IMG/VR virus record: IMGVR_UViG_3300020581_000010 | Coordinates: 11,253-75,252 of that record | Length of the DNA stretch: 64,000 nt | Direction: 5' to 3' (one strand) | DNA from: a virus | Part shown: positions 2,934-17,246 of the stretch, piece by piece | Layout of the letters: each line of letters begins with the position of its first letter | Numbering within the stretch: the stretch's first letter is position 1 | The notes under the pieces: generated by a model | Database searches by the model: none | The model's input: the letters and a program-made list of their open reading frames with translations, nothing else | Told to the model about the DNA's origin: nothing | Position numbers and translations under genes: made by a program

Positions 2934-4484
2934 TTAGTTTCCAATCGTGGTCGGCAGCAACTGGTCCGCGTAGATGAACGCACCCGGATTCAGCGGTGCC
3001 CCATCGGCGGTCATGATCGCCCGCACGGCCGTCTGGTCGGCCTGGAAGATCGCACCCTGGTTCGCCATTGCAAATTCGATGCTGCCGAACATGCCGATTC
3101 GCATGTTGCTCCACATCCCGCCGAAAAGCACTGTGAGGTTCGTGCCCGAAGACTTCACCCGGCCGTTCGGGACGTTGGAGCTGTTGACCACCTTGAAGCC
3201 GGCGAGGTAGTCGATCTGCTTCCCGTCCTCGAACCCGCGAGTCAGGTCGAACAGGAACAGACCGCCAGAGTCACCGACAGCGGCCACACCGGCACGCTTC
3301 GCCTGCATCGACCGGAGCAAGGTCGGGTAGATCAGCCAGCCCTCGAACTTCGCGTTGGCGGCCTCAACGTTGCCAATCATGGTGTACGGGTCGCCGGGGG
3401 CGAGCGTGTAACCGTTCGTGGTCGTGGCCGAACCCGTGCCGTTGAACGACTGGACGCCGGAGTAGCCGACGAGTCCCTGCGTGACGTTCTCGCTACCAGC
3501 ACCGACCATCAGGTTCTGGTCGAACAGCAACGAGATCGAAATCATCATGTCGTTGCGGAACAACTGCTCGACGATGGGTCCGCCGAAGCGGAGAAGCTCG
3601 TTGTTCGTGACGATGTACGCCCCGATCTTCTTGCCAGCGATTTCAATCTGGCCGGTGCCGACAGAGGACTGCGTGGTGTTCGCACCTTCGCCGACGTTGT
3701 AGGCGGTCGTCGGGGTCGTCTGCCGGGGGAACGTGATGCGGCCGGACGGAGGCAAGGGGAAGATCACCGCACCAGACGCGAGTACGGCCGAGTTGTTACG
3801 CAGCAAAGGGACCAGCGGCCCGAACTCAGGGAACGGCACCAAGGCACCGCCCAGGTTTTCTTGCAGGAAGCTCTGGGTCGAGCCGCCAACCTTTTGGGTG
3901 AAGCCCTGGTCGTTCCACTGCTGGTTCGTCTTCGTCACCAGAGCCGGATTGACCAGTCCCTTCTGCACCATCCAAGAGGCGTATTCCGGGTCGTAGGCCG
4001 GCTGCGTGTCGAGCAGGCTCTTGACCTCGAAGGCCAGTTCCTTGTCGATGCACGACAGGCGTGAGTCTTCCGAGTACAGGAAGTTCATCCCGAGCGGGCT
4101 GACGATGGTCTCTTTGTTGGTGTTGATCCCGTCCCGTTCGGTCGCCTCACGCCAGCCGCCCTTGTGGTCGCGGAAGGATTTCTTGAGCCTGTCCGACATG
4201 TTGAATTCGAGCTGGGCGTCTTCGGGCCGGATGGCTCCATTTGCAAGGCCAGCCGCCTTGTGGAACATGTATCCACGGCTGCCCATCGTGTCTTCACCAG
4301 CACGGGCTGCCGGGGCCTGGTTCTGGCCGAGGATGCGGCTCTTTGCCGTGGCTACCGAGCCGCGTCCGGCGACCAGTTGCCTTTCTGGCAACGCCTCTCG
4401 CCGTGCGGCCGCGATTCGCTTGCGGGCCTTCTGCAAGAGGGCCAACTCTTCTTTGAGTGCCTGTGTCTTCGCGGTGATTGCCAT
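2934..4484 (-). CDS. Major capsid protein (HK97 fold) with N-terminal delta/scaffold domain
   Basis: GGALVP, ITFPRQT...AYNVGEG, KKIGAY..TNNELL, YLAGFKVV.SSNVP, FQADQTAVRAI..D...P.AF motifs. Confidence 0.92.
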   Translation of the reverse strand: MAITAKTQALKEELALLQKARKRIAAARREALPERQLVAGRGSVATAKSRILGQNQAPAARAGEDTMGSRGYMFHKAAGLANGAIRPEDAQLEFNMSDRLKKSFRDHKGGWREATERDGINTNKETIVSPLGMNFLYSEDSRLSCIDKELAFEVKSLLDTQPAYDPEYASWMVQKGLVNPALVTKTNQQWNDQGFTQKVGGSTQSFLQENLGGALVPFPEFGPLVPLLRNNSAVLASGAVIFPLPPSGRITFPRQTTPTTAYNVGEGANTTQSSVGTGQIEIAGKKIGAYIVTNNELLRFGGPIVEQLFRNDMMISISLLFDQNLMVGAGSENVTQGLVGYSGVQSFNGTGSATTTNGYTLAPGDPYTMIGNVEAANAKFEGWLIYPTLLRSMQAKRAGVAAVGDSGGLFLFDLTRGFEDGKQIDYLAGFKVVNSSNVPNGRVKSSGTNLTVLFGGMWSNMRIGMFGSIEFAMANQGAIFQADQTAVRAIMTADGAPLNPGAFIYADQLLPTTIGN

Positions 4485-4531: not shown

Positions 4532-5044
4532 TTATCGGGAAAGGCGTTCGATCTCTGCGAGTTCCCGCTGGATCGAACGACGCAATTGCTCTTCCGTGTC
4601 CGACCCGAGGCCGAGCGACTTCGCCGTCTCGGTCTCCATGTCCGTGCCGCCCTCGCCTGCTTCGTGTTCGTCGTCGAACGTCTCTTCCGTCTCGCCACCC
4701 TCCATGTCGTAGACCGGAAGGTCCTTGTAGGACTTGTGCTTGCCGTAGTTCTTCTCGTGGTGGGTGCGGAAGTGCGAGTCGAGCTTGTCCATGATGGACT
4801 TCGCGTCGTCGATGGGCTTCCGCATCGGCCCCTCGACGTGGTCGTGGGCACCGATCACGTCTTTCAGCCCGTGCAGTCCCGCCATGATCCGGTGAGCGGC
4901 TTTTGCCCCTTCGGGCATGCCTTCGAGCGGGTCTTCCTCGCCGGCGATGTTCTCTTCGGTCTCTTCTTCGTGTGCGAGGTGTTCGGACCTGTCGGGGATG
5001 TCGCCGGGCTTGCGGGCGGGTTCGTCAACGACGTGTGCTGGCAT
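4532..5044 (-). CDS. Acidic head-operon protein (possible scaffold/internal protein)
   Basis: 170 aa Glu/His-rich, just upstream of MCP. Confidence 0.55.
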   Translation of the reverse strand: MPAHVVDEPARKPGDIPDRSEHLAHEEETEENIAGEEDPLEGMPEGAKAAHRIMAGLHGLKDVIGAHDHVEGPMRKPIDDAKSIMDKLDSHFRTHHEKNYGKHKSYKDLPVYDMEGGETEETFDDEHEAGEGGTDMETETAKSLGLGSDTEEQLRRSIQRELAEIERLSR

Positions 5045-5122: not shown

Positions 5123-5455
5123 CTACTGAGAATTGACCTTGACCGCCCACGGCCCGGAAGTGACGTGCCCCGAGTCGTCCATGAACTCCTCGCGGACCAC
5201 GGCGACGGGGCGTCCCCTGTGGTCGGTCCAACGCCCCTCGCGGACGAACTTCACCCCACCGTCAGCGTTGCCGAGTTCCGTGGTGGCTGACTTGGCACGC
5301 ACTTCAGCGTCTGGGACAGTGCCGTCAAATTTGTCGTCGGCGACAATTTTGGCTGGCTCTTTCAGTGCCGCGAATGTATCGTCCGTCTGCTTGGTCCAGT
5401 CGGCGTTCTCGTCTGTAGCGTCAGGCGAAGGGAACTCACTTGTGGAACTGCTCAT
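5123..5455 (-). CDS. Small acidic protein overlapping the ART gene end (candidate partner/inhibitor)
   Basis: MSSSTSEF start with GGAGGG RBS, 20-nt overlap with the 1572-aa gene. Confidence 0.55.
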   Translation of the reverse strand: MSSSTSEFPSPDATDENADWTKQTDDTFAALKEPAKIVADDKFDGTVPDAEVRAKSATTELGNADGGVKFVREGRWTDHRGRPVAVVREEFMDDSGHVTSGPWAVKVNSQ

Positions 5456-8400
5456 AGGTCGGCCCTCCACTCTGTGATCCGGCAAAAGTGTTCGTGGCGA
5501 GATCAATCTTCGGTGCGATGTGAGTCCACGCTGCCGTGTTGCACTTGATTTTTCCGCCGAGTACGACGCACTCGGCTTCGGTCAGGCACCCTGCCCCTGT
5601 TAAGGCTGTTGAGAACACTCTTTCGATTGGAACCCGCACGGCGATCATCATGCAGTTTTTCTTGGAGTTGTTCCTTGAACTGTCCGCGAAATAATGGGCC
5701 GTGTCGAAACTCGTGCTGAATGACGACAGCGGTTGCAACGCTGTCTCAGCACCATCTTGCGATGTCCACTTCTCCTCAATCTTTCCGCCCTCAAGCTTCA
5801 TGCCGCGATATAGGACTAGTTCCTTGATGCCTGCCTTCTTGAAAAACTCCTGCGTGTTCTCGTAAGTCGCTTCGAGATAAGCGTGGATGATGCCGCTGTA
5901 CTTCTCACGCATCTCTTCCGTCTTGTCTTGCAACGCGATTTCCTTTTTGCTGCCGCTCGGCCCGACGTAATTGAAACTGTCCTTGACGTTGAAAAATTCC
6001 TTGGCTCCGCCTTGAATAGCACGCGACAAGGCATTGTGATCGTTGGACGATTCCGCCCAGTTGTTGACGAGTACGGCGACGGCACCTTTGAGAGCGTCTT
6101 CTTCGTCTACCACGTCTTCCCAATGCTCCTCGTTGTACTCTTCGACAAGGGCTTCCGCTTCGGCCTCTACCGGAGTGCCAGCGTACTTTTTGCTGAGGAT
6201 TTCAGCGATCTGCTGCGTCAGATTTGCTTTAGCGTGTGCTCTCATCCCATGCGTTGCTTCAATGTTGCCCTTCGCGTCCACGGTGGATTCGTGGTCCCCT
6301 TCGTCTCTGGCGAATTTCTTGAACCACTCGCCCATGATCCGGTTCATCCCACCGTTAGACGATTGCTCTTTCAGTGATTGCAGGAAGGAAGCGTTCGTGT
6401 CGGGACTGCCTTCCGCCTTTTTTTTTTCGCTCGCCTCTTCCTTCTCCCCTCCCTTGCCTTGCTGCCGAGTCCAGATTTTGCCGCCCTTTGGGCCTTCGCC
6501 TGAGTAGGTCCAGCCTTCGCCGGGTGGAGTGGGGCCGTGGTACTCTTCGGCCTTGAGGGTGAAGCCGGCAGCTGATTTGTTGCTGGATTCGGTCCCGCGA
6601 AAAGCACCCTTATCTCTTTTCAGAATCCTAGCCGCGACAGAATCCTTGTCTCTCCAGTCCGAGACCCCGACATCTTTAGCCAGCTTCTCGCGTACACCCT
6701 TGGGTTGCGTGTCCAAGAGTTTGACAATCTGTGCATGCACGTCGGCGTCAGGCTCGCCCTTCTTCATGTCGTACTTGATGAAATCGTGCAGTGCCGTCCA
6801 AGTTTCCGGTAGCTTGCGAGGTGCGGGCGGTTGTTCGCGTTGTGGTGAAGGCTCAGGTTCCTTCTGTGCAATCTTGTTCCCGTGTTTGTCGTAGCCTTCT
6901 CCGAACGGATTGAATTCCTCTCGTTTGGTTCCGATGCCGTTTCTGCCCATGAACTCGGCAGCAGCTTTACCGATAGACTCGGCGTTTGCCCCGCGTCCGA
7001 TCATGACTGTCCCGTATGTGTTCTCTTTGTCGGACGGACTCATTTCCCGATGAACGTCCGACATGTTGCGGACTTCGTTCCACACCTTCAATTCGATTTG
7101 CTTCTGGTTAGCGAGAGAAATCAGGAGGCTTTTGAATTCCGTTGGCTTCATGTCGGGAGCAATCTTTCGCTTGAGTTCGGCATACAGATGGTCCGTCCTT
7201 GCCAGACCGTCACCGTGAACGTCTGACGCTGCGAATGCTCCGACTATTGATCGTCCTAAACTTTCGGCATCGTGAGGCTGGCCCTGTGATTGCTTTTTCT
7301 CGCCACTATGTTCGGCGGGTCCGCTTTCCGGCTCTCCCTGATGCTGCCAAATTTTGCCGCCTTTTGGGCCTTCACCCGTCTGCACCCATCCTTCGCCGGG
7401 CGGATTAGGCCCATGATACTCCGCTGCCTTCCACCCCTTCCGCACCTCGACAGGCTTCCGCGAGTCCATGCTGATCGTGCTGCCGTTCGACAAGTGCAGG
7501 ATGATCGTGTTCTGCTTGCGTTCCCGCTGCGTCACCTTGGCGAACTCGCCCGTCTTCGGGTCTTTCACGTCGTTCCCCGCCCGCACGTTGTTGATGTGCG
7601 TGGACACCGGCCTCGGCTTCGGAGTCACTGAAGAAGTCTGCGGCAACGGCGGAACGGCTGTCGGTTCAGGCGTCTTCGCCGTGCCGGGCATGGCTGCTTG
7701 CTGCCTCTCGGCGACGGCCTTGTCCCGCTTGGCCTTGAGGGCTTTCTGCAAGAGGTCGCGGTTCAGGGAAGTGTTCGCCACCTGATTGCTGCCCCACGAG
7801 TGCGGGTTGCTCTCCCTCAGCGTCACGCCTAAACGCTTGGCGAACTGGTTGAACTCGCCGTGGCTCAGTCCTTCCGAACTCTTGACGATGCCGTCGATGT
7901 CATGGTCCGTCACCTGAGACGGTCGTGCCGCCAGCTTGTTCCGCAGTGCGTCCGCATGGTCAATGGCGAATGGCACAGGAGAGTCATTGCGTCTCAGCGG
8001 CGCCTTCTGCCAGTCGTGCCGCTGCCTCAAGTGTGGGTACTTGTTGAGGATCGCGTCGGGGACGGGGATGCCTTCCTTGACCGCCTCATACGCTGAAATT
8101 TTCTCGGCCTGAATGTCTATCTCACGCTGAGTCGGGGGATGGTCGTAGGTCGCTACCCTGACATTGCCACGCATAAGCACGTTAGGCTTGTCGGGGTTGA
8201 CCGATAGGCCGATCTGATGCGGCGACTTGAGCCACGGTTTCACCGGCGGCGGGTGCTCCTGCTCGCGGGCCTGCTCCTCAGGTGTGCCGGTGGGAACCTG
8301 TCGTTCCCGCTCGTAGAGATTGGATTCGGGGTCTTGCGGTGGCTCTGGCAACGGCACGCGGGGTCCGCCGCCGCCGTACTTGGCAGCATTCGGGTGCGTG

Positions 8401-10154
8401 TGCAGCAACGCACGTGGGGCGGGTTCTCTCTCTGGTTCAGGCGTGCCTAGCGGCCTGTCCCCTGCTTCGCGTGCCCGCTCGTCTTCCTGACGCTGCCGCT
8501 GCTCTTGGAACTTCCTTTCGGCCTCCGGGTCTTCCTTGACGGGATTGAGTTCCAGCCGACGCCTGCCGAGTTCGTTGTTCACGATGTCGCGTGCGGTCAG
8601 GACGACGTTCTGGTCCTTATCGTTGCCGTACCACCCCTCGACGCCTAACTCCCTGCCGGCCTTCTGGAGGGCGTCTCCCGACAGTCCCCTGAGAGCGGCT
8701 TGCACCTTGACCTGCAACTCGCGGATGGTGCCGCTTATCAGCCCTTCCTCCGTCCCCTTGTTAGCTGAGAGTATGCCCCGCACGTCCTCCGCGACGCCGG
8801 GGACGGTCTTGGTCGGTGCCGCTGGCTTCTCGCCTTGTGGTTGCCCGCTGTGCCGCCACAGCTTGCCGCCTCGCGGTCCCTCTCCAGCGAATTCCCATCC
8901 TTCGCCGGGGGATTCGGGCTGGTGCCTCACTTCGTCCTTGAGTGTGAAGGACTTCGCCGTGATACCTTCGCTCCCTTGCTCCCACTCCGCGAGCAAGTCC
9001 TTGACTAGCTGCTCGGCCAACTCGTTGATCTGTGCGTCCGTCAGTCGGTCGAATCCCTTGGTAGACATCGACTCGCGGGCACGCTTGTAGACTTCGGCGA
9101 TCACGATGAACGGGACGGCCGTCAGTGCAGTTTGACCAGGCACCCATACGGGCACGCCGAACGCTGCACCTACTCCGGTCACTCCCCACGACAGGATGTT
9201 AGCCGCCCCGAAGATTCCGAGAGCTTGGCGACGACCATAACGAGCCTCCAGCCTCTTGAACATGCCAGCCGATACTGACCGCATCTTGCGTCCTGCCGCA
9301 CCGGCCGCACGCATGGTCTTCTTGCCGCCCTCGACTATCTTCGCGGCGATGTCGTCCGCGTGGTGCATAGCGTTGCGGATGCGTGGAGAGCGGCGGATAG
9401 CTGACGCCATGCTCCACTGGTGCTTGCCGTTGCTCTTGGGTTGTTTGCCGGGGGACCAGATTTTCCCGCCGCGTGGTCCTTCGCTCACGAGGTGCCAGTT
9501 GTCGCCCGGCGGCTTGGGTCCGTGGTACTCGGCAGACTTCGCGGTGAAGGATTTTGCAGTCTTCCGCTGTCTCTTTACGGCAGTCCACTTGCCCCACTCG
9601 TTGTTCCACGCGAGTTGGAACTTACTCCCGTCGTCCGCCATCTCCTTGTTAGCGACCGCGATGTCTTCGGCAGTGTAGTCCCTGAATTCAGGGTCGTTGA
9701 ATGTCTGGACATAGGATGCCGAGATGGTGTCACCTACCATCTTGCGGGCCTGCTCAAAGTATTCACGGTCGCCCATGTCGGGCTTTCCCGTCAGAGGGTT
9801 CGTGACCAGCACTGACCGTTCGCCGACGAGACTTCCGAGGTCTCGCAAGTGCATCGCGTTCCAGCCACCCTTGCCATCGGGAACAAGGCGGAATTTGCTG
9901 CCGTCGTCGCGGAGTTTCTGGTTCGCCTCGCGGGCGTCCTTAGCTGTTGCCATCGGGTTCTTGCGGAAGGATTCGACAGCAGCATTAACCGGATCATCTG
10001 CGGGTGGCTTTTTGAGCGTCGGCTCGCCGCCGGGGATAGAATCTGTCCGTTTCCAAATCTTGCCGCCCTTCGGTCCTTCCCCAGACAATACCCATCCCTC
10101 ACCAGGCGGGGTCGGCCCGTGATACTCGGCAGCTTTTTCGATAGTTGCGAGCAC
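5436..10154 (-). CDS. Large modular head-associated polyprotein with five repeated tags and a C-terminal ADP-ribosyltransferase domain
   Basis: Five ~28-aa repeats; C-terminal LYRG / LSSFSTS / EAE (R-S-E) motifs; between protease and MCP. Confidence 0.8.
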   Translation of the reverse strand: MLATIEKAAEYHGPTPPGEGWVLSGEGPKGGKIWKRTDSIPGGEPTLKKPPADDPVNAAVESFRKNPMATAKDAREANQKLRDDGSKFRLVPDGKGGWNAMHLRDLGSLVGERSVLVTNPLTGKPDMGDREYFEQARKMVGDTISASYVQTFNDPEFRDYTAEDIAVANKEMADDGSKFQLAWNNEWGKWTAVKRQRKTAKSFTAKSAEYHGPKPPGDNWHLVSEGPRGGKIWSPGKQPKSNGKHQWSMASAIRRSPRIRNAMHHADDIAAKIVEGGKKTMRAAGAAGRKMRSVSAGMFKRLEARYGRRQALGIFGAANILSWGVTGVGAAFGVPVWVPGQTALTAVPFIVIAEVYKRARESMSTKGFDRLTDAQINELAEQLVKDLLAEWEQGSEGITAKSFTLKDEVRHQPESPGEGWEFAGEGPRGGKLWRHSGQPQGEKPAAPTKTVPGVAEDVRGILSANKGTEEGLISGTIRELQVKVQAALRGLSGDALQKAGRELGVEGWYGNDKDQNVVLTARDIVNNELGRRRLELNPVKEDPEAERKFQEQRQRQEDERAREAGDRPLGTPEPEREPAPRALLHTHPNAAKYGGGGPRVPLPEPPQDPESNLYERERQVPTGTPEEQAREQEHPPPVKPWLKSPHQIGLSVNPDKPNVLMRGNVRVATYDHPPTQREIDIQAEKISAYEAVKEGIPVPDAILNKYPHLRQRHDWQKAPLRRNDSPVPFAIDHADALRNKLAARPSQVTDHDIDGIVKSSEGLSHGEFNQFAKRLGVTLRESNPHSWGSNQVANTSLNRDLLQKALKAKRDKAVAERQQAAMPGTAKTPEPTAVPPLPQTSSVTPKPRPVSTHINNVRAGNDVKDPKTGEFAKVTQRERKQNTIILHLSNGSTISMDSRKPVEVRKGWKAAEYHGPNPPGEGWVQTGEGPKGGKIWQHQGEPESGPAEHSGEKKQSQGQPHDAESLGRSIVGAFAASDVHGDGLARTDHLYAELKRKIAPDMKPTEFKSLLISLANQKQIELKVWNEVRNMSDVHREMSPSDKENTYGTVMIGRGANAESIGKAAAEFMGRNGIGTKREEFNPFGEGYDKHGNKIAQKEPEPSPQREQPPAPRKLPETWTALHDFIKYDMKKGEPDADVHAQIVKLLDTQPKGVREKLAKDVGVSDWRDKDSVAARILKRDKGAFRGTESSNKSAAGFTLKAEEYHGPTPPGEGWTYSGEGPKGGKIWTRQQGKGGEKEEASEKKKAEGSPDTNASFLQSLKEQSSNGGMNRIMGEWFKKFARDEGDHESTVDAKGNIEATHGMRAHAKANLTQQIAEILSKKYAGTPVEAEAEALVEEYNEEHWEDVVDEEDALKGAVAVLVNNWAESSNDHNALSRAIQGGAKEFFNVKDSFNYVGPSGSKKEIALQDKTEEMREKYSGIIHAYLEATYENTQEFFKKAGIKELVLYRGMKLEGGKIEEKWTSQDGAETALQPLSSFSTSFDTAHYFADSSRNNSKKNCMMIAVRVPIERVFSTALTGAGCLTEAECVVLGGKIKCNTAAWTHIAPKIDLATNTFAGSQSGGPTYEQFHK
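6471..10135 (-). repeat. Five dispersed copies of an ~85-nt (28-aa) coding repeat
   Basis: Copies at about 10050-10135, 9456-9540, 8855-8940, 7345-7430 and 6471-6555; consensus K-[AS]-x-EYHGP-x-PPGEGW-xxx-GEGP[KR]GGKIW. Confidence 0.92.
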
Positions 10155-10155
10155 G

Positions 10156-11784
10156 TTACACCGTCAGACTGGATTCAGCTTCGGTGAGAAAATCCGCCGC
10201 CTTCGCCGTGATTGCTTCGTGTACCTTCCCCTTGCCGTCGTCACGTACCACGTCACCCTCTTTGTTACCGTGGTTCACCCCGCAACCCGCGAGCGTTGAC
10301 CTTGCCCACACGTAGAGCCGGTGCTGGCGGTAGGGGGTAACGAGCGTCTGCCGTCCGTCGTCCGCGACGTGCAGGAAGTGGTGGTGTTTCTTCTCGGCGT
10401 CGGTCAGTTCCAACGCCCCTTCAAGTGCGACCGTCGCGGGTTTCTGCTCCTTGCTGGTGATGGACTTCTCTTGCTTGGGAAGTTCCGCGATGTTGGCGGT
10501 CAGCGGGTAGGTGAGGACTTCGTTGCCGTCCCACTTCGCGGGCTTCGTCTTGTCCCACGGGTAGGGGAACGAGAACTTGCCGGCAGCGGTCTGGATGTCC
10601 AAGACCCCAGCTTTCTTGTCGCGGCTGACGACTTGGATTTCCTGCGGCTGGAGGGACGTGTTGCCGCCCATCCACAGTTGCAAATTGTCGTAGTCCCAGT
10701 TCTCGCGGGGTCGGACAACGAGAACCACCTTGTCTCCGAAGTGTCCGCAATACTCGGCCTGCATGTCGTCCGGCAGTCCGTCAATGGAGAACTGTCCCGC
10801 GATGTTCACTTGGGGGATGCTGTTGCGTGGGACGCCGTTGCGGGCACGCGGCATGTCTCCGGAGGGGCCGGCAGCTCCCATGCTGCGGTCGAGGGAGTCG
10901 CGTGCGAGGTCGATGGTGCGGTTCGGGTTCGATGGTTCCATTGGGATGCTCTTTTGGGTGATACCTGGGACTGAGACGGATACGGGGCGGTTCAGGTGGT
11001 AGCCGAGCTGCTCGAAGGACTTTCGGATCACGGGGTCGAGCGGGTCGCCCTCAAGTTTCTTGCGGCCCAGCAGAGTCAGCACGGCGTCAGGGTTCATGCC
11101 TGCCGGAACCCACGATCCCTCGACCATCGCACATCGCTCGATGAACCGGCCCGGCTTCGGCAGCCCGGCGTCCGGTTCGGGCGGCAGCTTGCGGACGATC
11201 AAGTCCTTGAAGGCGATGCTGTTCGCCCTGAGTACGCGGGCCTTGACCAGCGAGTAGCACTGCACGGCGAACGCGGTCTTGTTGTGGAAAAAAGTCTTCT
11301 GCGTGATGACCTGGGAATCGACATCCTTCCAGACGCAGTACTTGCCGTCCGGCGATTCGCTGACCCCCACTGGGAACGGGGACCACTTGCCGTGGTCGTA
11401 CAGGATGATCGGGTTACTCTGATGTTCGGTGGTGACGACCCCGCCAACGTCTACCACGTCGCCCACCCAATCGCGGCGGTTCGTGCAGAGGATGCCGATG
11501 GCGGACATCTCCCCGTCGTCGGTGGACACGTCCATGAGGTCGCTGTTGAGGCTGACCAGCCCGTCTACTTCCGACTCTTCGGAGGTGTTGTAGAGCTTGT
11601 AGGTGTAGGCCTTGACCGACTGAACGTCGTGGCACCCGCAGGCCGACTTGGCGGTGACGGAGGCGAGTCCCCATAACTGGTTGCACAGGGCTGTGCGGTC
11701 CTCTGCCGACAGTCCAGCGAGTTCAGGATGCAATTGGCACCTCGACAAAAACTGGTGCGGAGTCTCATCGGGCAATCGCTGCAT
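10156..11784 (-). CDS. Prohead (maturation) protease, HK97/U35-like, with long C-terminal extension
   Basis: RDWVGDVV..GG, NPIILYDHG, LRANSIAF, EGSWVPAGMNPDA motifs; N-terminal P.ET..QF.SRC. Confidence 0.85.
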   Translation of the reverse strand: MQRLPDETPHQFLSRCQLHPELAGLSAEDRTALCNQLWGLASVTAKSACGCHDVQSVKAYTYKLYNTSEESEVDGLVSLNSDLMDVSTDDGEMSAIGILCTNRRDWVGDVVDVGGVVTTEHQSNPIILYDHGKWSPFPVGVSESPDGKYCVWKDVDSQVITQKTFFHNKTAFAVQCYSLVKARVLRANSIAFKDLIVRKLPPEPDAGLPKPGRFIERCAMVEGSWVPAGMNPDAVLTLLGRKKLEGDPLDPVIRKSFEQLGYHLNRPVSVSVPGITQKSIPMEPSNPNRTIDLARDSLDRSMGAAGPSGDMPRARNGVPRNSIPQVNIAGQFSIDGLPDDMQAEYCGHFGDKVVLVVRPRENWDYDNLQLWMGGNTSLQPQEIQVVSRDKKAGVLDIQTAAGKFSFPYPWDKTKPAKWDGNEVLTYPLTANIAELPKQEKSITSKEQKPATVALEGALELTDAEKKHHHFLHVADDGRQTLVTPYRQHRLYVWARSTLAGCGVNHGNKEGDVVRDDGKGKVHEAITAKAADFLTEAESSLTV

Positions 11785-12132: not shown

Positions 12133-12177
12133 TGAGTGTGTGAGGGGAACGATACTCAAACGCGAAGGGGATGGACG

Positions 12178-12411
12178 ATGCAAACGCTGATGCCACCAAT
12201 CGGAACTTCTGTTCAATGCTGGTTCGGGTCGCACACCTATCGCGGCGTGGTCAGCAAGAATGGGAAGGTCGCACCGCATGTCAGATTCAAACTCAAGAAT
12301 GGACGTGTAATCGAAGGCAGGGCGACAATTTTACCTCACGGTGCTGCGACCGGAGTTGCCTACCGTGGCTATTTGGCCCAAATGTATCATCCGACCTCTT
12401 ACGGAAAGTAG
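12178..12411 (+). CDS. Hypothetical protein
   Basis: ATG after AAGGGG; first gene after the promoter. Confidence 0.55.
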   Translation: MQTLMPPIGTSVQCWFGSHTYRGVVSKNGKVAPHVRFKLKNGRVIEGRATILPHGAATGVAYRGYLAQMYHPTSYGK

Positions 12412-12417
12412 AACCCA

Positions 12418-12633
12418 ATGCCCGAATCCATCGGCCAGCGTCTCAAGCGACTGCGGCTCGCGTCCAAGCTGAGTCAGGCTAAGGTGGCCAAGGCGTCCGG
12501 CCTGTGCCTCAAGACCCTGTGCCGCATCGAACGAGATGAGAACGTCCCCACCATCTACTCGGCACGAGCGATTGCTGGGGTGCTGGGGATCGGACTTGAG
12601 GAATTTGTTGGAGAGCGTGAACTGGTGCAGTAG
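12418..12633 (+). CDS. XRE-family HTH regulator
   Basis: IGQRLKRLRLASKLSQAKVAKASGL...RIERDENVP. Confidence 0.85.
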   Translation: MPESIGQRLKRLRLASKLSQAKVAKASGLCLKTLCRIERDENVPTIYSARAIAGVLGIGLEEFVGERELVQ

Positions 12634-12647
12634 TCAGGAGTCTACCC

Positions 12648-13349
12648 ATGATCGCTATCGAACGCCGTCGCAACATGAAAGCCGAGAGCTGTAGGGCTTG
12701 CGGGAAATTCTGCGAAGCTGGCGATGGATTCCTTTACAGGGACACCCATACGCATCGTCGCAATCGCTACACCGGACGCTTTCTTTGGTTCGTCAAGTGC
12801 GTGGATTGCCATGAAGGCAACAAGACCAAGGGAATCGTTGCGGCCGAAAAATATGCGGCCGCTCACGCGAGCGACCCGGTCGTTCGTCCGTGGTCATTGT
12901 CCCAAGTTAGGAAGTGGAGCGTGGAGCGAATTGAACACAAAGACGATGTTGCCATACGAATTGAATCAGCGACTTTTGCCGGGATCATCAGCTATCGGGA
13001 CCGGATCAACAGCAGCTTTCGTGCCCCGACTGGCTACGCGATGGAGCAATACGAATTCGCTGGAAAGCCTCTTTCCCGCAATGCGGCTGACGAGTTGACG
13101 AATCGCGTCCTTCCGATCATCAACGCGGTCAACAGTGAGGAGCGGGCGTCCGGAGAAATCGCCGCCGCGAAACTGGTTGCTGCTGGTGCCGTAGTTTCCA
13201 AGCATTGCTGCGGATTTTGCTGGAACGTCGAATTCAAGGGCGGAAGATTTACCCTTTGGGGGTGCGTCAACGGCAACAACAAAATGTCTGGGATCATCAA
13301 CGGCAAATGGGTCGAAACGACGGCCGAAAATCTGATTAGGGTTGAATAG
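12648..13349 (+). CDS. Hypothetical protein with N-terminal Zn-binding motif
   Basis: AGGAG RBS; CRACG...CVDC. Confidence 0.65.
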   Translation: MIAIERRRNMKAESCRACGKFCEAGDGFLYRDTHTHRRNRYTGRFLWFVKCVDCHEGNKTKGIVAAEKYAAAHASDPVVRPWSLSQVRKWSVERIEHKDDVAIRIESATFAGIISYRDRINSSFRAPTGYAMEQYEFAGKPLSRNAADELTNRVLPIINAVNSEERASGEIAAAKLVAAGAVVSKHCCGFCWNVEFKGGRFTLWGCVNGNNKMSGIINGKWVETTAENLIRVE

Positions 13350-13362
13350 TCCGGTCACTTAA

Positions 13363-13404
13363 ACAAAACAGCCCCCGGTTTATCCGCCAAGACTCACCGG
13401 GGGC
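13363..13404 (-). terminator. Hairpin/terminator
   Basis: GCCCCCGGT...ACCGGGGGC stem followed by TGTTTTGTTT on the minus strand. Confidence 0.5.
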
Positions 13405-13423
13405 CTAACAGGAGTGTCACGAG

Positions 13424-13591
13424 ATGTCATTATGCAAGCACAACTACTCCGAAGCAATCGAAAACCAGCCTGCCGATGAAACTGTCGACGCCGAGTGGCA
13501 AGCGTTCCAGCAGCAGCAGGCGGAAGAGATGTTCGCGGACGCGGCGTATGTCGAGGAGATGGAACGGCACTTTAACAAGATTGGATGGTGA
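13424..13591 (+). CDS. Small acidic hypothetical protein (55 aa, not in ORF track)
   Basis: AGGAG RBS; MSLCKHNYSEAIENQPADETVDAEWQAFQQQQAEEMF... Confidence 0.55.
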   Translation: MSLCKHNYSEAIENQPADETVDAEWQAFQQQQAEEMFADAAYVEEMERHFNKIGW

Positions 13592-13594
13592 ACC

Positions 13595-13981
13595 GTGGCC
13601 GAACGAAACCCGATGCAACCGATTGTCGTGAGCAATGACGTTGTTCGCTTCAAGGCAAACCGGATCGTGCGGAAGTTGTTGGATGTCGCAACCAGAGCCG
13701 GCGTATACGACCTGAACCACATCGCGGCGGACAGGGAGTTCTCGCAAGACGACCGGGCTCAATTCGCCCAGCTGATCGGCTACAGTGTGACCGGCTACCA
13801 CGAACTTAGTCACATCAGCGACCAACATTGCAAGGAAGCGACTGACGCCGCACAAGCTAAATGGCCCGGCTTCAAGGCGTGCCGAGACATGGGGTGCAAA
13901 ATCCACTGCGGCGTTGAACTTGAGGTCCGTGGAAGCGTGATTGAGCCATCGAAAATGTTACTCGGCGAATGCGACGATTGA
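13595..13981 (+). CDS. Hypothetical phage protein
   Basis: 128 aa, contiguous with upstream ORF; RFKAN.IV..LLD...DLN...QFAQLIGYSV.GY.EL. Confidence 0.65.
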   Translation: MAERNPMQPIVVSNDVVRFKANRIVRKLLDVATRAGVYDLNHIAADREFSQDDRAQFAQLIGYSVTGYHELSHISDQHCKEATDAAQAKWPGFKACRDMGCKIHCGVELEVRGSVIEPSKMLLGECDD

Positions 13982-13986
13982 TCCCG

Positions 13987-14148
13987 TCACTTCTTCTTCG
14001 GCGGTGGCGGGTTCTTCCCGCCGCCTGCCGAACGTCTCGCCTGACTGTACGCGATGGCTGCCGCGACATCCGGCCTTTTCCCAGCCGCGATTTCACGTCT
14101 GATGTTCTCGCTGATCGTGTCCCTGCTCTTGCCAGGTTTCAATGGCAT
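13987..14148 (-). CDS. Small basic phage protein (MPLK-G-S...ISENI...AAAIAY type, 53 aa, not in ORF track)
   Basis: MPLKPGKSRDTISENIRREIAAGKRPDVAAAIAYSQARR...; GAGG RBS; resembles a common small head-region family. Confidence 0.7.
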   Translation of the reverse strand: MPLKPGKSRDTISENIRREIAAGKRPDVAAAIAYSQARRSAGGGKNPPPPKKK

Positions 14149-14157
14149 GGCCTCACC

Positions 14158-14376
14158 TCACAGTTTGATACCCCGTTCGTTCACCAGCATGGTAAACAAC
14201 TCTTGAGCCACGGCGGACGACTCCAGCCCCTCCACCTTCGCCAGCACTTCGTCGGCCGTGAGTGAGCCTCCCCACACCGCGTTGACTCCCCTGATGAAAG
14301 AGGCGGTCCCCTTGGACATGGCGGCGATGTCGCCTTCGGATTGGGTGGCCGGAACGGGTGCGACTGCTAACGGCAT
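14158..14376 (-). CDS. Hypothetical protein
   Basis: GGAG RBS; 72 aa. Confidence 0.5.
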   Translation of the reverse strand: MPLAVAPVPATQSEGDIAAMSKGTASFIRGVNAVWGGSLTADEVLAKVEGLESSAVAQELFTMLVNERGIKL

Positions 14377-14432
14377 GGGGACTCCAGAAAAATTCGGTTC
14401 GCTATTGACACGTCTGCGGCTATTCTAGCGGT

Positions 14433-14900
14433 ATGGACGCCACGGACGCAATAACCCTTTCAGACGAAGCCCTGCAATCGCTCACGACGAACTACCGCGA
14501 CCACCACGCGGGGCCGTACCATGACCGCGAAATGGCGTGGGTGCTGCTCGGCACAGGGCATCACGTCGTGAGGGCGTTCCCAGACTGGTCATACCAGAGC
14601 GAAAAGACGCGGTTCAAGTTCGGGAAGACGGTCGGGACTGCCATTGCCAAGCTGATCGCTGATGATCCGGCGAGGTGCGTTCTCGGCACGGTCCACACCC
14701 ACCCGCGAGGGCCGAACATCCTCAGCCCGTTCGACCAACGCGAGTGCGGCGAGTGGGTGGCACGACAGGAGATGTTTGAAGGACTGTTCGGGATCGTGTC
14801 CCGCGTGCAGGGCGGCATAGCGATAGGCGGTGGGGCGTGGTGTCAGTTCTTTTGGGTCAACCGGGTCGGCTACTTCCGGCCTGCGGAGGTCCGCTCATGA
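14433..14900 (+). CDS. JAB/MPN+ (JAMM) metalloprotease
   Basis: Catalytic Glu (REMAWVLLG) plus HTHP-x5-S-xx-D (GTVHTHPRGPNILSPFD). Confidence 0.8.
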   Translation: MDATDAITLSDEALQSLTTNYRDHHAGPYHDREMAWVLLGTGHHVVRAFPDWSYQSEKTRFKFGKTVGTAIAKLIADDPARCVLGTVHTHPRGPNILSPFDQRECGEWVARQEMFEGLFGIVSRVQGGIAIGGGAWCQFFWVNRVGYFRPAEVRS

Positions 14901-15400
14901 GTCCCCGCCCTGACTTCGTGTCACCCGTCGAGGCGTCCGACATACTCGGCGTCAGCGTCATGGAAGTGAGGGACTTGGTCTCTTCGGGACTCATCGCCAG
15001 GGACGCCCGCTACGTCCGCCGCTTCAAGGTCTCTCTGTTCGGCCTGTACCGCTACGCCCGTGCGAACCACCTCTCCATCCAGTCGCCGTGGCCTCAGCTC
15101 TACCCCGTGCTCGCCGTGGGGTTCCCCGCAGCGTTCATCGAGCAGCTAGACGACGCGGTGGGCAGTGAGCAACTGAGGTTGTTCGACGCATCGGTGGTGA
15201 ACTTCCGCGAGGTGTTCGAGGAGCACGCCCCCTTAGCCGTGGTGGTTGACACCAGCGTCAGGGGGCTATCGTTGCAAGAGGCGAGGATGGTGGCGGCTCA
15301 ACTGGACTTCTGGCAGGCCGAGCCGGCGAGGACGGTGCGGACGGTCGGCGAAGTGATAAGCGACATGTACTCGCGGTGGCCTGGGAGCAATGGGGACTAG
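14897..15400 (+). CDS. Excisionase-type HTH fused to a degenerate receiver-like domain
   Basis: VSPVEASDILGVSVMEVRDLVSSGLI HTH; C-terminal VLAVG...EEHAPLAVVVD; ATGA overlap with JAB. Confidence 0.55.
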   Translation: MSPRPDFVSPVEASDILGVSVMEVRDLVSSGLIARDARYVRRFKVSLFGLYRYARANHLSIQSPWPQLYPVLAVGFPAAFIEQLDDAVGSEQLRLFDASVVNFREVFEEHAPLAVVVDTSVRGLSLQEARMVAAQLDFWQAEPARTVRTVGEVISDMYSRWPGSNGD

Positions 15401-15645
15401 TTGGCTTCGATTTGATCCTTCACGTCTTTGTCGATCATGGTCTTCAATCTCTCTTCGTGTTCTTTGTGCCCCTCTTTTTCTTTTTCGGAATACGGCCCGT
15501 GAGCCTCATCGTATTCCTTGACCTTGTCGTCGATGAACTTCTTGCAGTCCTTGCAAAACGCTAAGTGGTCGGCAAATGTCAGCCTCTCTGCGGACGACAT
15601 TTCTTCCGGCCATCGCAAATTCGATCGGAACTCTTCGCATGTCAT
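15397..15645 (-). CDS. zf-HC2 (anti-sigma-like zinc finger) protein
   Basis: MTCEEF...HLAFCKDC (C...HxxxCxxC). Confidence 0.7.
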   Translation of the reverse strand: MTCEEFRSNLRWPEEMSSAERLTFADHLAFCKDCKKFIDDKVKEYDEAHGPYSEKEKEGHKEHEERLKTMIDKDVKDQIEAN

Positions 15646-17246
15646 TTTCCGTTTGCCGTTGCCGACACCCTCCCATTCGCATGGACTTCTTTTGCACGCC
15701 CACGCCTCTTGAGAATTTCCAGCACTTCCTCAATTGTCTCGCCATCGGTCCAAGCCTTCTTGGTGTGGCTTTTCAATCCGAGATCGGCAGGTCCAACTTG
15801 TGCCGCTTCCTTGTCACCTTGGCCAAGTGCTGCCGTCATCGGGTCGGACGGCACCATTGCCCCACCGCCCGTGCCCGGTTGCTGGCCGGTTCCGCCGATC
15901 CATTCCTTGTCCCTGTCCGACGGCTTCAGCCCGACAAGCTGTCTGAATTCGCCGACCGTAATTACGCCCGGTTTCGACGCTGCCGCGTTCGCTCGTTCGA
16001 GATCGAACTTCTCATCGCTCGGCTTCTTGCCGTGCAAGTGCAGATGAACGTCTTCGCTGTACCACGGATGAATCAGACCGACTGTCAACGCACTTGCGAA
16101 CTTCGCCAACATTGGGTCTAAGCTGCTGTAATGGAAGCTCATGATCGAAGCGTGGTCGGTCGCAAAGTTGTCGTGGCCAGAAAGGCCGGCAATCGCTTTG
16201 TTCAGGCCGAATGCCGCGAGCGTGAATTCTAACAACTGATCCCAAGATTTTTCCCAGCCCATTTCTGCCGGGCTGTTCGTGAACGGGGTCAGTTTGCTGA
16301 ACGGCGGGGCGACGAACGGGATTCCAGAATTCTCTGCCCCACCGTAGATGTTGACCAACTGCTCCCTCAGCCTCTCCATGTCCTTCGCCGATGGCTGAAA
16401 CGCCAAACTGTCGAAACTCAACATAAACCGCTGTTTCAGCCCCTGCTTCATCTCGTTCGCCCGGCTCAAATCCATCTGCCTCACCACGTCCGTCTGTGCA
16501 GCAATCGCAAAGAGGCAGGCATATCCCGTCCACCGGAAGAACGGGTGAGGGTCTTTGACCATCACGATCTGCTCGGCGGGGACCACCGTCCCGACCCCCT
16601 GCTGGACTGGAATCTGTGCGTATGGTCCTGCGGGTAGCCACGGCTGCACCAGCCATGCCCCGTTAGGCCACAGGGGGCTGATGGGCTGCGGGATCAACGA
16701 CGCAGTGGAGAGGACGTAGGCTTCCTGCGGGCGGTCCCATTCGATGTCCAGTTCCCAAGGCGTCCAGATGGGGGCCATGCCAGTGAGGCACTTCTGCAAG
16801 TTTCCCTGTTCAAGGATGTCAGCCAGCGTTTCCTTGGGGTTCGGATGGCTGAGGAATTCGACCACCTCGTCCTTGGGGTAGACGGGGATTCGCCTGTCGG
16901 GTTCTCGCGGGTCCAATTCGTAGAACTCGGCCTCAGCCTGGTAGAAATGGCGGTTCAGCGTGTTGATGGCCAAGAACACTTGAGAGAAGTACTGCCGGCT
17001 GAGCTGGAACCAATTCTGATCGGCGTAGCCTGGGGCGTTGACCCTCTGGGCAGACCAGAAGAATCGGTAGGCATCGAACGTGCTGAGGACGTTCTGGCTG
17101 CCATAGTCGGCGATGTCCGTGAGCGGCTGGACGCGATTCGGTGGGCCGGTGTCCCTCCACCGTCGCCACCACGCCGAGCTGTTGCTGGACATGCTCGGAG
17201 CTGCGAGCGATTGGGCTTTCTGGTTAGCGGAGCAAGTGTAGGGCAT
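15642..17246 (-). CDS. Portal protein (start may be 17192)
   Basis: LSHPNP.ET, LTGMA.IW, PAEQIV.VKDPHP, YGG.ENSG.P, LAAFG, ITVGEFRQLVGLKP motifs. Confidence 0.88.
   Translation of the reverse strand: MPYTCSANQKAQSLAAPSMSSNSSAWWRRWRDTGPPNRVQPLTDIADYGSQNVLSTFDAYRFFWSAQRVNAPGYADQNWFQLSRQYFSQVFLAINTLNRHFYQAEAEFYELDPREPDRRIPVYPKDEVVEFLSHPNPKETLADILEQGNLQKCLTGMAPIWTPWELDIEWDRPQEAYVLSTASLIPQPISPLWPNGAWLVQPWLPAGPYAQIPVQQGVGTVVPAEQIVMVKDPHPFFRWTGYACLFAIAAQTDVVRQMDLSRANEMKQGLKQRFMLSFDSLAFQPSAKDMERLREQLVNIYGGAENSGIPFVAPPFSKLTPFTNSPAEMGWEKSWDQLLEFTLAAFGLNKAIAGLSGHDNFATDHASIMSFHYSSLDPMLAKFASALTVGLIHPWYSEDVHLHLHGKKPSDEKFDLERANAAASKPGVITVGEFRQLVGLKPSDRDKEWIGGTGQQPGTGGGAMVPSDPMTAALGQGDKEAAQVGPADLGLKSHTKKAWTDGETIEEVLEILKRRGRAKEVHANGRVSATANGK

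Follow-up and report, generated by a model that had tools for sequence, protein, structure and literature searches.

Why should one phage protein, encoded among the head genes, carry the same short peptide five times, each time in front of a different module? The question is raised by a 64,000-nucleotide (nt) stretch of viral DNA, here called the window, which covers positions 11,253 to 75,252 of IMG/VR virus record IMGVR_UViG_3300020581_000010, a linear record of 75,252 bp rated 68% complete by CheckV. The protein, P0001, is encoded on the minus strand by an open reading frame (ORF) of 1572 amino acids (aa) at 5436..10154, with a GTG start at 10152-10154 and a stop at 5436-5438; an earlier note on this DNA had pointed it out, and the ORF is real. 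As delineated by the ORF, a tag profile and self-BLAST, P0001 comprises five modules and five copies of the peptide, hereafter the tag. With somewhat better than even confidence, P0001 is read here as a polyvalent cargo protein of the phage type: it would be produced together with the head proteins, taken into the prohead, cut there, and delivered with the DNA, where packaging, cleavage and ejection are what we infer from the sequence. The protein type, polyvalent head proteins, is already known. Other features appear to be undescribed: i) the predicted fold of the header; ii) its strict position at the head of a module; and iii) the apparent cut-then-tag order, in which the tag would be kept on the cargo.

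The core of the repeat, EGP[KR]GGK[IL]W, occurs at aa 26, 225, 425, 928 and 1220 of P0001. The 28-aa tags, all read from the minus strand and defined by motif and profile, are tag 1 (aa 7-34, 10053..10136), which follows M-L-A-T-I-E-K; tag 2 (aa 206-233, 9456..9539), directly after K-T-A-K-S-F-T-A-K; tag 3 (aa 406-433, 8856..8939), after I-T-A-K-S-F-T-L-K; tag 4 (aa 909-936, 7347..7430), after R-K-G-W-K; and tag 5 (aa 1201-1228, 6471..6554), after G-F-T-L-K. Core motif and profile scores agree on these positions, where five Gly/Pro/Trp copies had been reported. Thirteen of the 40 aligned columns are invariant among the five. A profile made from 96 tags of other proteins gives the P0001 copies 48-64 bits (independent E-values of 1e-14 to 1e-19), and no further ORF of the 75-kb genome, read in six frames, rises above 6.8 bits. 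The segments between the tags (171, 172, 475, 264 and 344 aa) show no mutual similarity in self-BLAST, in keeping with the earlier description of the modules as dissimilar.

At the DNA level the tag copies are 56-74% identical, and the longest stretches that they share exactly measure 8-16 nt; the codons are scrambled at synonymous positions, although the peptide that they encode is conserved. This pattern points to selection on the protein and, if anything, to avoidance of recombination between copies. The tags had also been proposed to serve as recombination anchors for swapping modules; at the DNA level, such anchors would let modules be swapped or deleted by homologous recombination, and modules are indeed shuffled at tag borders between phages. 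With exact runs so short and copies so diverged, such a role is extremely improbable.

Is the tag peculiar to P0001? A profile of the five P0001 copies, run against 1.84 billion representative proteins at E <= 1e-3, matched 75 proteins. Four of these were low-complexity false matches; the other 71 are true clusters that carry 98 tags, one in each of 52 proteins, two in 14, three in 3, four in 1, and five, the most, in P0001. The profile search suggested in the earlier note thus yields a real family placed ahead of diverse modules. Its consensus is approximately [FL]G[ML]VGDE[WY]-HGP-x-PPG-[PE]-GW-V-x-x-G-x-GP-[KR]-GGK-[IV]-W, with a near-invariant His (90 of 96) and conserved basic residues, and the 25 residues that follow the tags are enriched in P, Q, K and G. 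The distance from a tag to the C-terminus is never below 55 aa and is mostly at least 160 aa, and four tags lie 20 aa or less from the N-terminus. The tag is therefore a header of the module that follows rather than a trailer of the one that precedes. A degenerate DNA pattern for the tag identified 7 true loci in IMG/VR, and 21 of its 27 matches in Joint Genome Institute (JGI) metagenome contigs were true. In the contigs of 185,579 species' genomes, a strict tag DNA pattern gave 13 matches, one of them true, on a 5.7-kb contig binned into a metagenome-assembled genome. Since nearly all copies lie outside species genomes, the family resides almost entirely in uncultured phage contigs, and from the one true match no host can be assigned.

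An AlphaFold model computed from a 33-sequence tag alignment has three short antiparallel strands (model residues 18-21, 29-34 and 40-44), which correspond to E-Y-H-G, a stretch starting at the first Trp, and K-I-W-T-R. Its predicted local distance difference test score (pLDDT) reaches about 90 for the core residues and stays below 50 for the flanks. The tag is thus predicted to be an independently folding, three-stranded beta mini-domain of about 30 residues, with a flexible linker of Pro, Gln, Lys and Gly behind it; in the model its conserved Gly and Pro lie in loops, and a tiny core could be built by the three aromatics. The earlier note had allowed that the repeat might be a characterised domain with no targeting function. 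The tag has no Pfam match, the only thing that the tag profile found in the PDB was thaumatin, by a chance match over a 20-residue hairpin (E 0.06), a Foldseek search with the modelled tag returned nothing at E <=0.001, and a full-text literature search for tag motif strings matched no phage paper.

One known fold invites comparison. Like the tag, the WW domain is a three-stranded antiparallel sheet of ~30-40 residues with two conserved Trp and a conserved Pro, and the P-G-x-G-W at the start of the tag is reminiscent of the L-P-x-G-W of WW domains. However, the two Trp are spaced 13 residues apart in the tag against ~20-22 in WW domains, and neither Pfam nor Foldseek gives a match. An assignment to the WW family was rejected, and the likeness is one of resemblance only.

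The proteins that carry the tag elsewhere indicate what kind of protein P0001 is. Pfam domains found in 61 carriers are Phage_Mu_F (20), Portal_Mu (7), PI3_PI4_kinase (6), Amino_oxidase (5), ART-PolyVal (5), DUF3626 (3), 2H phosphoesterase (3) and ADPrib_exo_Tox (2), as well as RelA_SpoT, Acb1, an anthrax-LF-like peptidase, SAP and an intein. The occurrence of MuF and of Mu-type portal domains at these frequencies marks the carriers as phage-type polyvalent head proteins. Seven further carriers were scanned individually for domains. P0004 (2126 aa) has a MuF domain, interrupted by an intein at aa 553-846, and then four tags heading zincin-like, membrane hairpin, ParB-like and PI3/4-kinase-like modules. 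The order in P0006 is tag, MuF, tag, tag and an ADP-ribosyltransferase (ART) exoenzyme; in P0007, Mu portal, tag, tag and topoisomerase IB (Topoisom_I); and in P0008, tag, tag, hairpin, tag and Zeta toxin (Zeta_toxin). In the complete or long IMG/VR contigs L009 and L013, the tag protein is a MuF gene product encoded directly after a Mu-type portal gene, and in contig L010 it is fused to the portal (1935 aa).

Modules are exchanged among these proteins. Modules 1, 2, 4 and 5 of P0001 have homologues behind tags elsewhere, in other combinations. The tag proteins P0003 (3 tags) and P0005 (2 tags), and P0077, the sole homologue of the 542-aa ORF next to P0001 (47% identity over the N-terminal 63%), each come from a 75,991-bp JGI contig, and by this identical size they are likely to belong to one sister phage. 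By BLAST, the tags are all that P0003 and P0005 have in common with P0001, and module content thus varies. If the three proteins are from one phage, sister phages keep the protease and the tags and exchange payloads. The proposal of a modular payload array in the head-gene block is borne out to the extent that the same tag heads different modules in other phages, and the content of relatives is not invariant, as the sister-phage proteins differ from P0001 in all but the tags. Even between phages in which BLAST finds no counterpart of the capsid, portal or protease of the P0001 phage, the tags are still 50-65% identical. Searches of viral contigs with P0003, P0010, A1 and A3 found no related loci, and a search of metagenome contigs with P0077 found nothing.

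Polyvalent proteins (Iyer 2017, PMC5512222) are long polypeptides that string together unrelated conflict effectors such as ART, ParB-like, Zeta toxin, kinase and peptidase domains; they are encoded with, or fused to, MuF/portal genes and are predicted to be packaged and injected. P0001 resembles them in joining five unrelated modules in one chain, an ART-like module and a membrane hairpin included, and in lying in a head-gene block; its tag relatives occur with MuF/portal, and five tag carriers match Pfam ART-PolyVal. It differs from them in matching none of the named signature domains and in having no MuF. In searches of P0001 against Pfam, PHROGs and NCBIfam, nothing was found except a weak DRAT match; Pfam MuF (PF04233) is absent from P0001 and from the whole 75-kb record, and ART-PolyVal (PF18760) is absent from the genome. 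A term search of the Iyer paper (PMC5512222) did not find a conserved junction mini-domain, and that paper credits processing to embedded metallopeptidases, whereas the candidate here is the prohead protease. Jamet et al. 2017 (PMC5576092) describe the MuF polymorphic toxins of temperate phages, head-module proteins that end in a toxin such as ART. The last module of P0001 has ART-type motifs and a sub-threshold DRAT match, and about a third of the tag carriers have a MuF domain, but P0001 lacks the N-terminal MuF and has five modules rather than one toxin. A junction element like the tag was not found in a term search of that paper either.

Does P0001 belong to the head genes of its own phage? 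The minus-strand order is portal, a plus-strand insert, the 542-aa ORF, P0001, a 127-aa ORF, a 170-aa ORF and capsid. The portal protein (15642..17246, minus) matches Pfam Phage_portal (E 3.5e-23) and the major capsid protein (2934..4484, minus) matches Pfam Phage_capsid over aa 223-505 (E 1e-22). The 170-aa ORF (4532..5044, minus) is acidic and scaffold-like, with E-T-A-K-S ~30 aa from its C-terminus. The 542-aa ORF (10156..11784, minus), whose N-terminal half is a probable S78-like prohead protease, has its stop one base from the GTG of P0001 (TAA-C-GTG), a gap that suggests translational coupling. By eye, no clear ribosome-binding site is seen upstream (10150-10160), and a +1 shift at the stop of the 542-aa ORF would fuse its frame with P0001. 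The claim that P0001 lies between prohead protease and capsid is correct as to position; the name protease comes from database leads and signature blocks and not from a family model.

Alternatively, P0001 could be a cytoplasmic multi-enzyme protein, early or late, or a component of the tail or ejection apparatus that happens to lie among head genes. The head block is interrupted by accessory-looking plus-strand genes (~12136-15400), which separate the portal from the protease and cargo genes, and P0001 is known here from its sequence. Yet it lies on the same strand as the protease, one nt away, it shares a TAKS motif with the capsid protein, and its tag family is associated with MuF and portal fusions. 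A role other than capsid cargo is therefore very unlikely.

If P0001 is capsid cargo that is cut, what would cut it? The ten nearest ESM Atlas clusters of the 542-aa ORF that have a family are all Peptidase_S78 (score 0.91, a lead only). Three blocks resembling those of HK97 gp4 can be seen by eye in the same order: D..GD; LYDH131GKW..PVG, against FFNH65KTWELPVG in gp4; and ANS189IAF, against GMS114VGF. All three are conserved in P0077. The N-terminal half of the 542-aa ORF is thus a probable S78-like (HK97-type) prohead protease, in which His131 and Ser189 would be the catalytic candidates. The C-terminal ~280 aa (10156-11000) have no match, and in P0077 this half is replaced by a 2H phosphoesterase (PF13563, '2'-5' RNA ligase'), so that the protease itself seems to carry an exchangeable cargo domain.

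A candidate cut site is shared by the putative protease, its cargo and the shell. In a crude set of 106 non-overlapping ORFs the tripeptide TAK occurs 13 times; nine of these lie in P0001, the protease ORF or the capsid protein, and the remaining four in all the others. With the 170-aa ORF added, the four head proteins hold 10 TAK against 0.65 expected, and TAK ranks first among the tripeptides that they have in common. No tetrapeptide other than TAKS is present in each of the four; it occurs 6 times, against 0.046 expected, and in no ORF outside this group. In the capsid protein the sites are I-T-A-K-T (aa 3-7) and A-T-A-K-S (aa 45-49), the latter at the end of a coiled-coil-like 48-residue leader; in the protease ORF they are at aa 44-47 and 526-529, the second 13 residues from the C-terminus; and in P0001 they start at aa 70, 199, 204, 399 and 825. 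These are places where maturation cuts are expected. In P0077 the N-terminal site that matches the TAK of the protease reads T-E-K-S. With a slash marking the candidate cut, the sequence just upstream of tags 2 and 3 reads K-T-A-K-S-F-T-A-K/S and I-T-A-K-S-F-T-L-K/D, tag 5 follows F-T-L-K/A, tag 4 follows G-W-K/A and tag 1 follows T-I-E-K/A. A Lys at tag position -5 is found in 10 of 97 tags, nine of them in P0001, P0003 and P0005, the apparent lineage with this type of protease. The putative Lys sites lie 3-5 residues upstream of the first strand of the tag; a cut there would leave the tag on the released module, unlike the T4 capsid targeting sequence.

HK97 offers a parallel to this arrangement. 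There too the protease gene lies upstream of the capsid gene, and blocks resembling those around the gp4 His and Ser can be made out by eye in the 542-aa ORF. The HK97 capsid record reads ...G-A-K-T-F-N-K and then S-L-G-S-D at residues 103/104, which resembles TAKSFTAK/SAEY of P0001; the HK97 capsid protein is known to be cut between residues 103 and 104. The differences are that the 542-aa ORF is more than twice as long as gp4, has an unmatched C-terminal half and fails every profile test, and that HK97 has no cargo polyprotein.

Several points weigh against reading P0001 as cut and packaged cargo. P0001 has no MuF or portal domain that would take it into the prohead. The 542-aa ORF gives no match to Pfam S78, S78_2, NCBIfam, PHROGs or the PDB; hhalign of HK97 gp4 with the alignment of the 542-aa ORF gave a probability of 0.1; and an AlphaFold model of the protease half, built from two sequences, had a pLDDT of 33 and was unusable. 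TAK was first noticed by eye in the head proteins and only then counted. The canonical TAK precedes tags 2 and 3 only, as against T-L-K at tags 3 and 5, G-W-K at tag 4 and I-E-K at tag 1. In the larger, FGMVGDEWHGP subfamily of tags, the upstream residues occur only inside the tags and not in neighbouring ORFs, which limits the cut-site argument to the P0001 lineage. The sister phage is held together by the identical 75,991-bp contig size and by nothing else. To the earlier proposal that the head protease frees the modules, the shared TAKS, confined to the four head proteins, gives indirect support; the enzyme itself matches no protease model.

The absence of a common cut site in the larger subfamily is also what would be expected if the tag were a mere structural spacer, a rigid mini-domain with a linker in a giant protein that is never cut. 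The virion RNA polymerase of N4 is packaged unprocessed (PMC5512222), and the conserved Gly, Pro and three aromatics of the tag suit the building of a tiny fold. On the other hand, the near-invariant His and the conserved basic residues exceed the needs of such a fold, a spacer is not needed in a single-module protein, nor at aa 7, where the first tag of P0001 stands, and the enrichment of TAKS and the lineage-specific Lys at -5 are left unexplained. An uncut protein with spacers is quite unlikely.

How, then, might a cut and packaged P0001 work? Made with the head proteins, it would end up inside the prohead, where the S78-like protease encoded just upstream would cut after the lysines of T-x-K, before S, A, G or D. 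About six products would result, spanning aa 1-72, 73-201, 207-401, 407-827, 828-1201 and 1202-1572, and the pieces that start at 207, 407 and 1202 would retain the tag as an N-terminal cap. The freed pieces, the membrane hairpin and the ART among them, would leave with the DNA into the host. The tag would then be a portable header that stays on its cargo and is read by something common to very different phages.

Tag-plus-protease processing has a functional precedent in the T4 capsid targeting sequence and gp21. A capsid targeting sequence is described for the T4 internal proteins and Alt, and DarB of P1 is targeted by 30 residues at its N-terminus (Mullaney and Black 1996, via PMC9024508). 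The two systems would share a short N-terminal address on unrelated cargo and the ejection of the cargo as an early anti-host effector. They also share a cleavage motif common to cargo and shell or scaffold, here TAKS by sequence evidence. The T4 targeting sequence is ~10-20 residues long, lies upstream of the cut and is removed, whereas the tag of P0001 is a ~30-residue folded element, lies downstream of the putative cut and is repeated within one chain. In sequence the tag resembles neither the T4 nor the P1 signals.

This precedent raises the possibility that the tag is a docking peptide that binds the prohead interior (capsid, scaffold or portal) and so loads each module, in the manner of the capsid targeting sequence of T4, the 30-residue address of P1 DarB or the cargo-loading peptides of encapsulins. 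Targeting by N-terminal peptides is established in T4 and P1 (PMC9024508); the tag stands ahead of a module in every case and never behind one, and it lies near the N-terminus in small one-module proteins. P0001, which has no MuF or portal anchor, starts with a tag at aa 7, and a separate amine-oxidase gene in contig L013 starts with a degenerate tag-like stretch (10.6 bits). But a chain that is still uncut could be loaded without internal copies, a MuF domain is already present in ~20 of 61 carriers and a portal domain in 7 of 61, and the candidate cut leaves the tag on the cargo, unlike in T4. Nor is a peptide that co-evolves with a shell surface expected to be conserved in phages whose capsid, portal and protease are unmatched. 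The docking of each module by its tag, which the earlier note had favoured, is not supported by this pattern, and as an explanation of the tag it is unlikely.

Within the reading of P0001 as cut and delivered cargo, the role of the tag can be assigned only tentatively. The tag may be a handle by which each freed module is coupled to the DNA or to the exit path for ejection, a possibility placed first among the roles but short of an even chance. A loading or docking address for the cargo is a possible but doubtful role, a passive spacer that insulates folds is unlikely, and some other role is less likely again. The conservation of the tag beyond that of head proteins, the needless internal copies and the MuF/portal anchors give a slight lean to a role that every freed module needs, and a loading role stays in play because P0001 lacks MuF/portal and has a tag at its start. 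In its strongest form, the proposal is that the tag is a universal portable address which, placed after a protease site, suffices for any protein to be carried in an HK97-fold capsid and delivered, whichever phage supplies the head proteins; this is a long shot. If it were so, the tag could be one sequence family within a broader, undescribed mode of cut-then-tag cargo loading, a suggestion that is equally speculative.

Polyvalent head proteins are thought to inject ready-made counter-defence enzymes for many phages. The present locus suggests a testable arrangement for them: a Lys site shared with the capsid protein, a scaffold-like ORF and the protease, then a folded header, and then a module. 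In the 71-cluster family one header stands before toxins, kinases, oxidases, a topoisomerase, a membrane hairpin and a phosphoesterase of the anti-CBASS (cyclic oligonucleotide-based antiphage signalling system) type. If the header is a loading or ejection address, it would explain the exchange of modules between unrelated phages, and the tag would be a handle for packing foreign proteins into capsids and for phage-delivered proteins.

What the P0001 modules themselves encode is clear in part, the best defined being the last. Module 5 (aa 1229-1572; 5439..6470, minus) is ART-like by a weak DRAT/ART Pfam match, by motifs and by homology to P0010. It had been called an ART outright; the motifs YRG (1449-1451), S-T-S (1480-1482) and E-x-E (1526-1528) and their conservation in P0010, to aa 578-899 of which the module is 32% identical (E 1e-43), speak for this, and the Pfam match (E 1.3e-4, 21.7 bits) falls below the 25-bit curated cut-off. 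A PDB sequence search with this module was empty. Module 2 (aa 234-405; 8940..9455, minus) contains the hydrophobic hairpin described earlier, now located at aa 311-355 (9090-9224), and has homologues in P0004, P0008, P0009, P0010, P0014, P0031 and P0034. Module 1 (aa 35-205; 9540..10052, minus), with an internal ATAK/D at aa 70-73, is 38% identical to aa 526-725 of P0023, where the homologue is likewise preceded by a tag.

Module 4 (aa 937-1200; 6555..7346, minus) is recognised by homology of its C-terminal part, aa 1109-1185 matching segments of P0013, P0045 and the L009 MuF protein at 39-45% identity; ESM Atlas gave no usable match for this module. Module 3 (aa 434-908; 7431..8855, minus) has Pro/Glu-rich stretches, a GTAK/T at aa 825-828 and, at its C-terminal end, a small unit (aa 850-908), and it matches no family. 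Single-linkage clustering of inter-tag segments gave one large component. SAP-like helix-extended-helix stretches follow several tags, in P0001 at aa ~480-520 and ~1140-1185 by eye only; the one such stretch that reaches a Pfam SAP match (E 7e-5) is at aa 509-542 of the protein encoded at L012:9067-12162. If these stretches are real, some modules could tether cargo to DNA.

The remaining observations concern neighbouring genes. The 127-aa ORF (5123..5506, minus) overlaps the 3' end of P0001; its match in P0005 (33% identity, E 2e-6) covers aa 85-144, ahead of the first tag of that protein. In the capsid protein, ~170 residues without a match (aa 49-222) separate the putative 48-aa leader from the Pfam capsid domain and may be an extra domain. 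In L009 (6817-8748) and L013 (8639-10222), which are unrelated phages, a flavin amine oxidase gene lies directly after the MuF-tag gene; the tag-like stretch at the start of the L013 oxidase reads S-P-G-K-G-W-V-S-A-G-E-G-R-W. To our knowledge an oxidase is an unusual capsid cargo, and five other tag carriers contain an Amino_oxidase domain.

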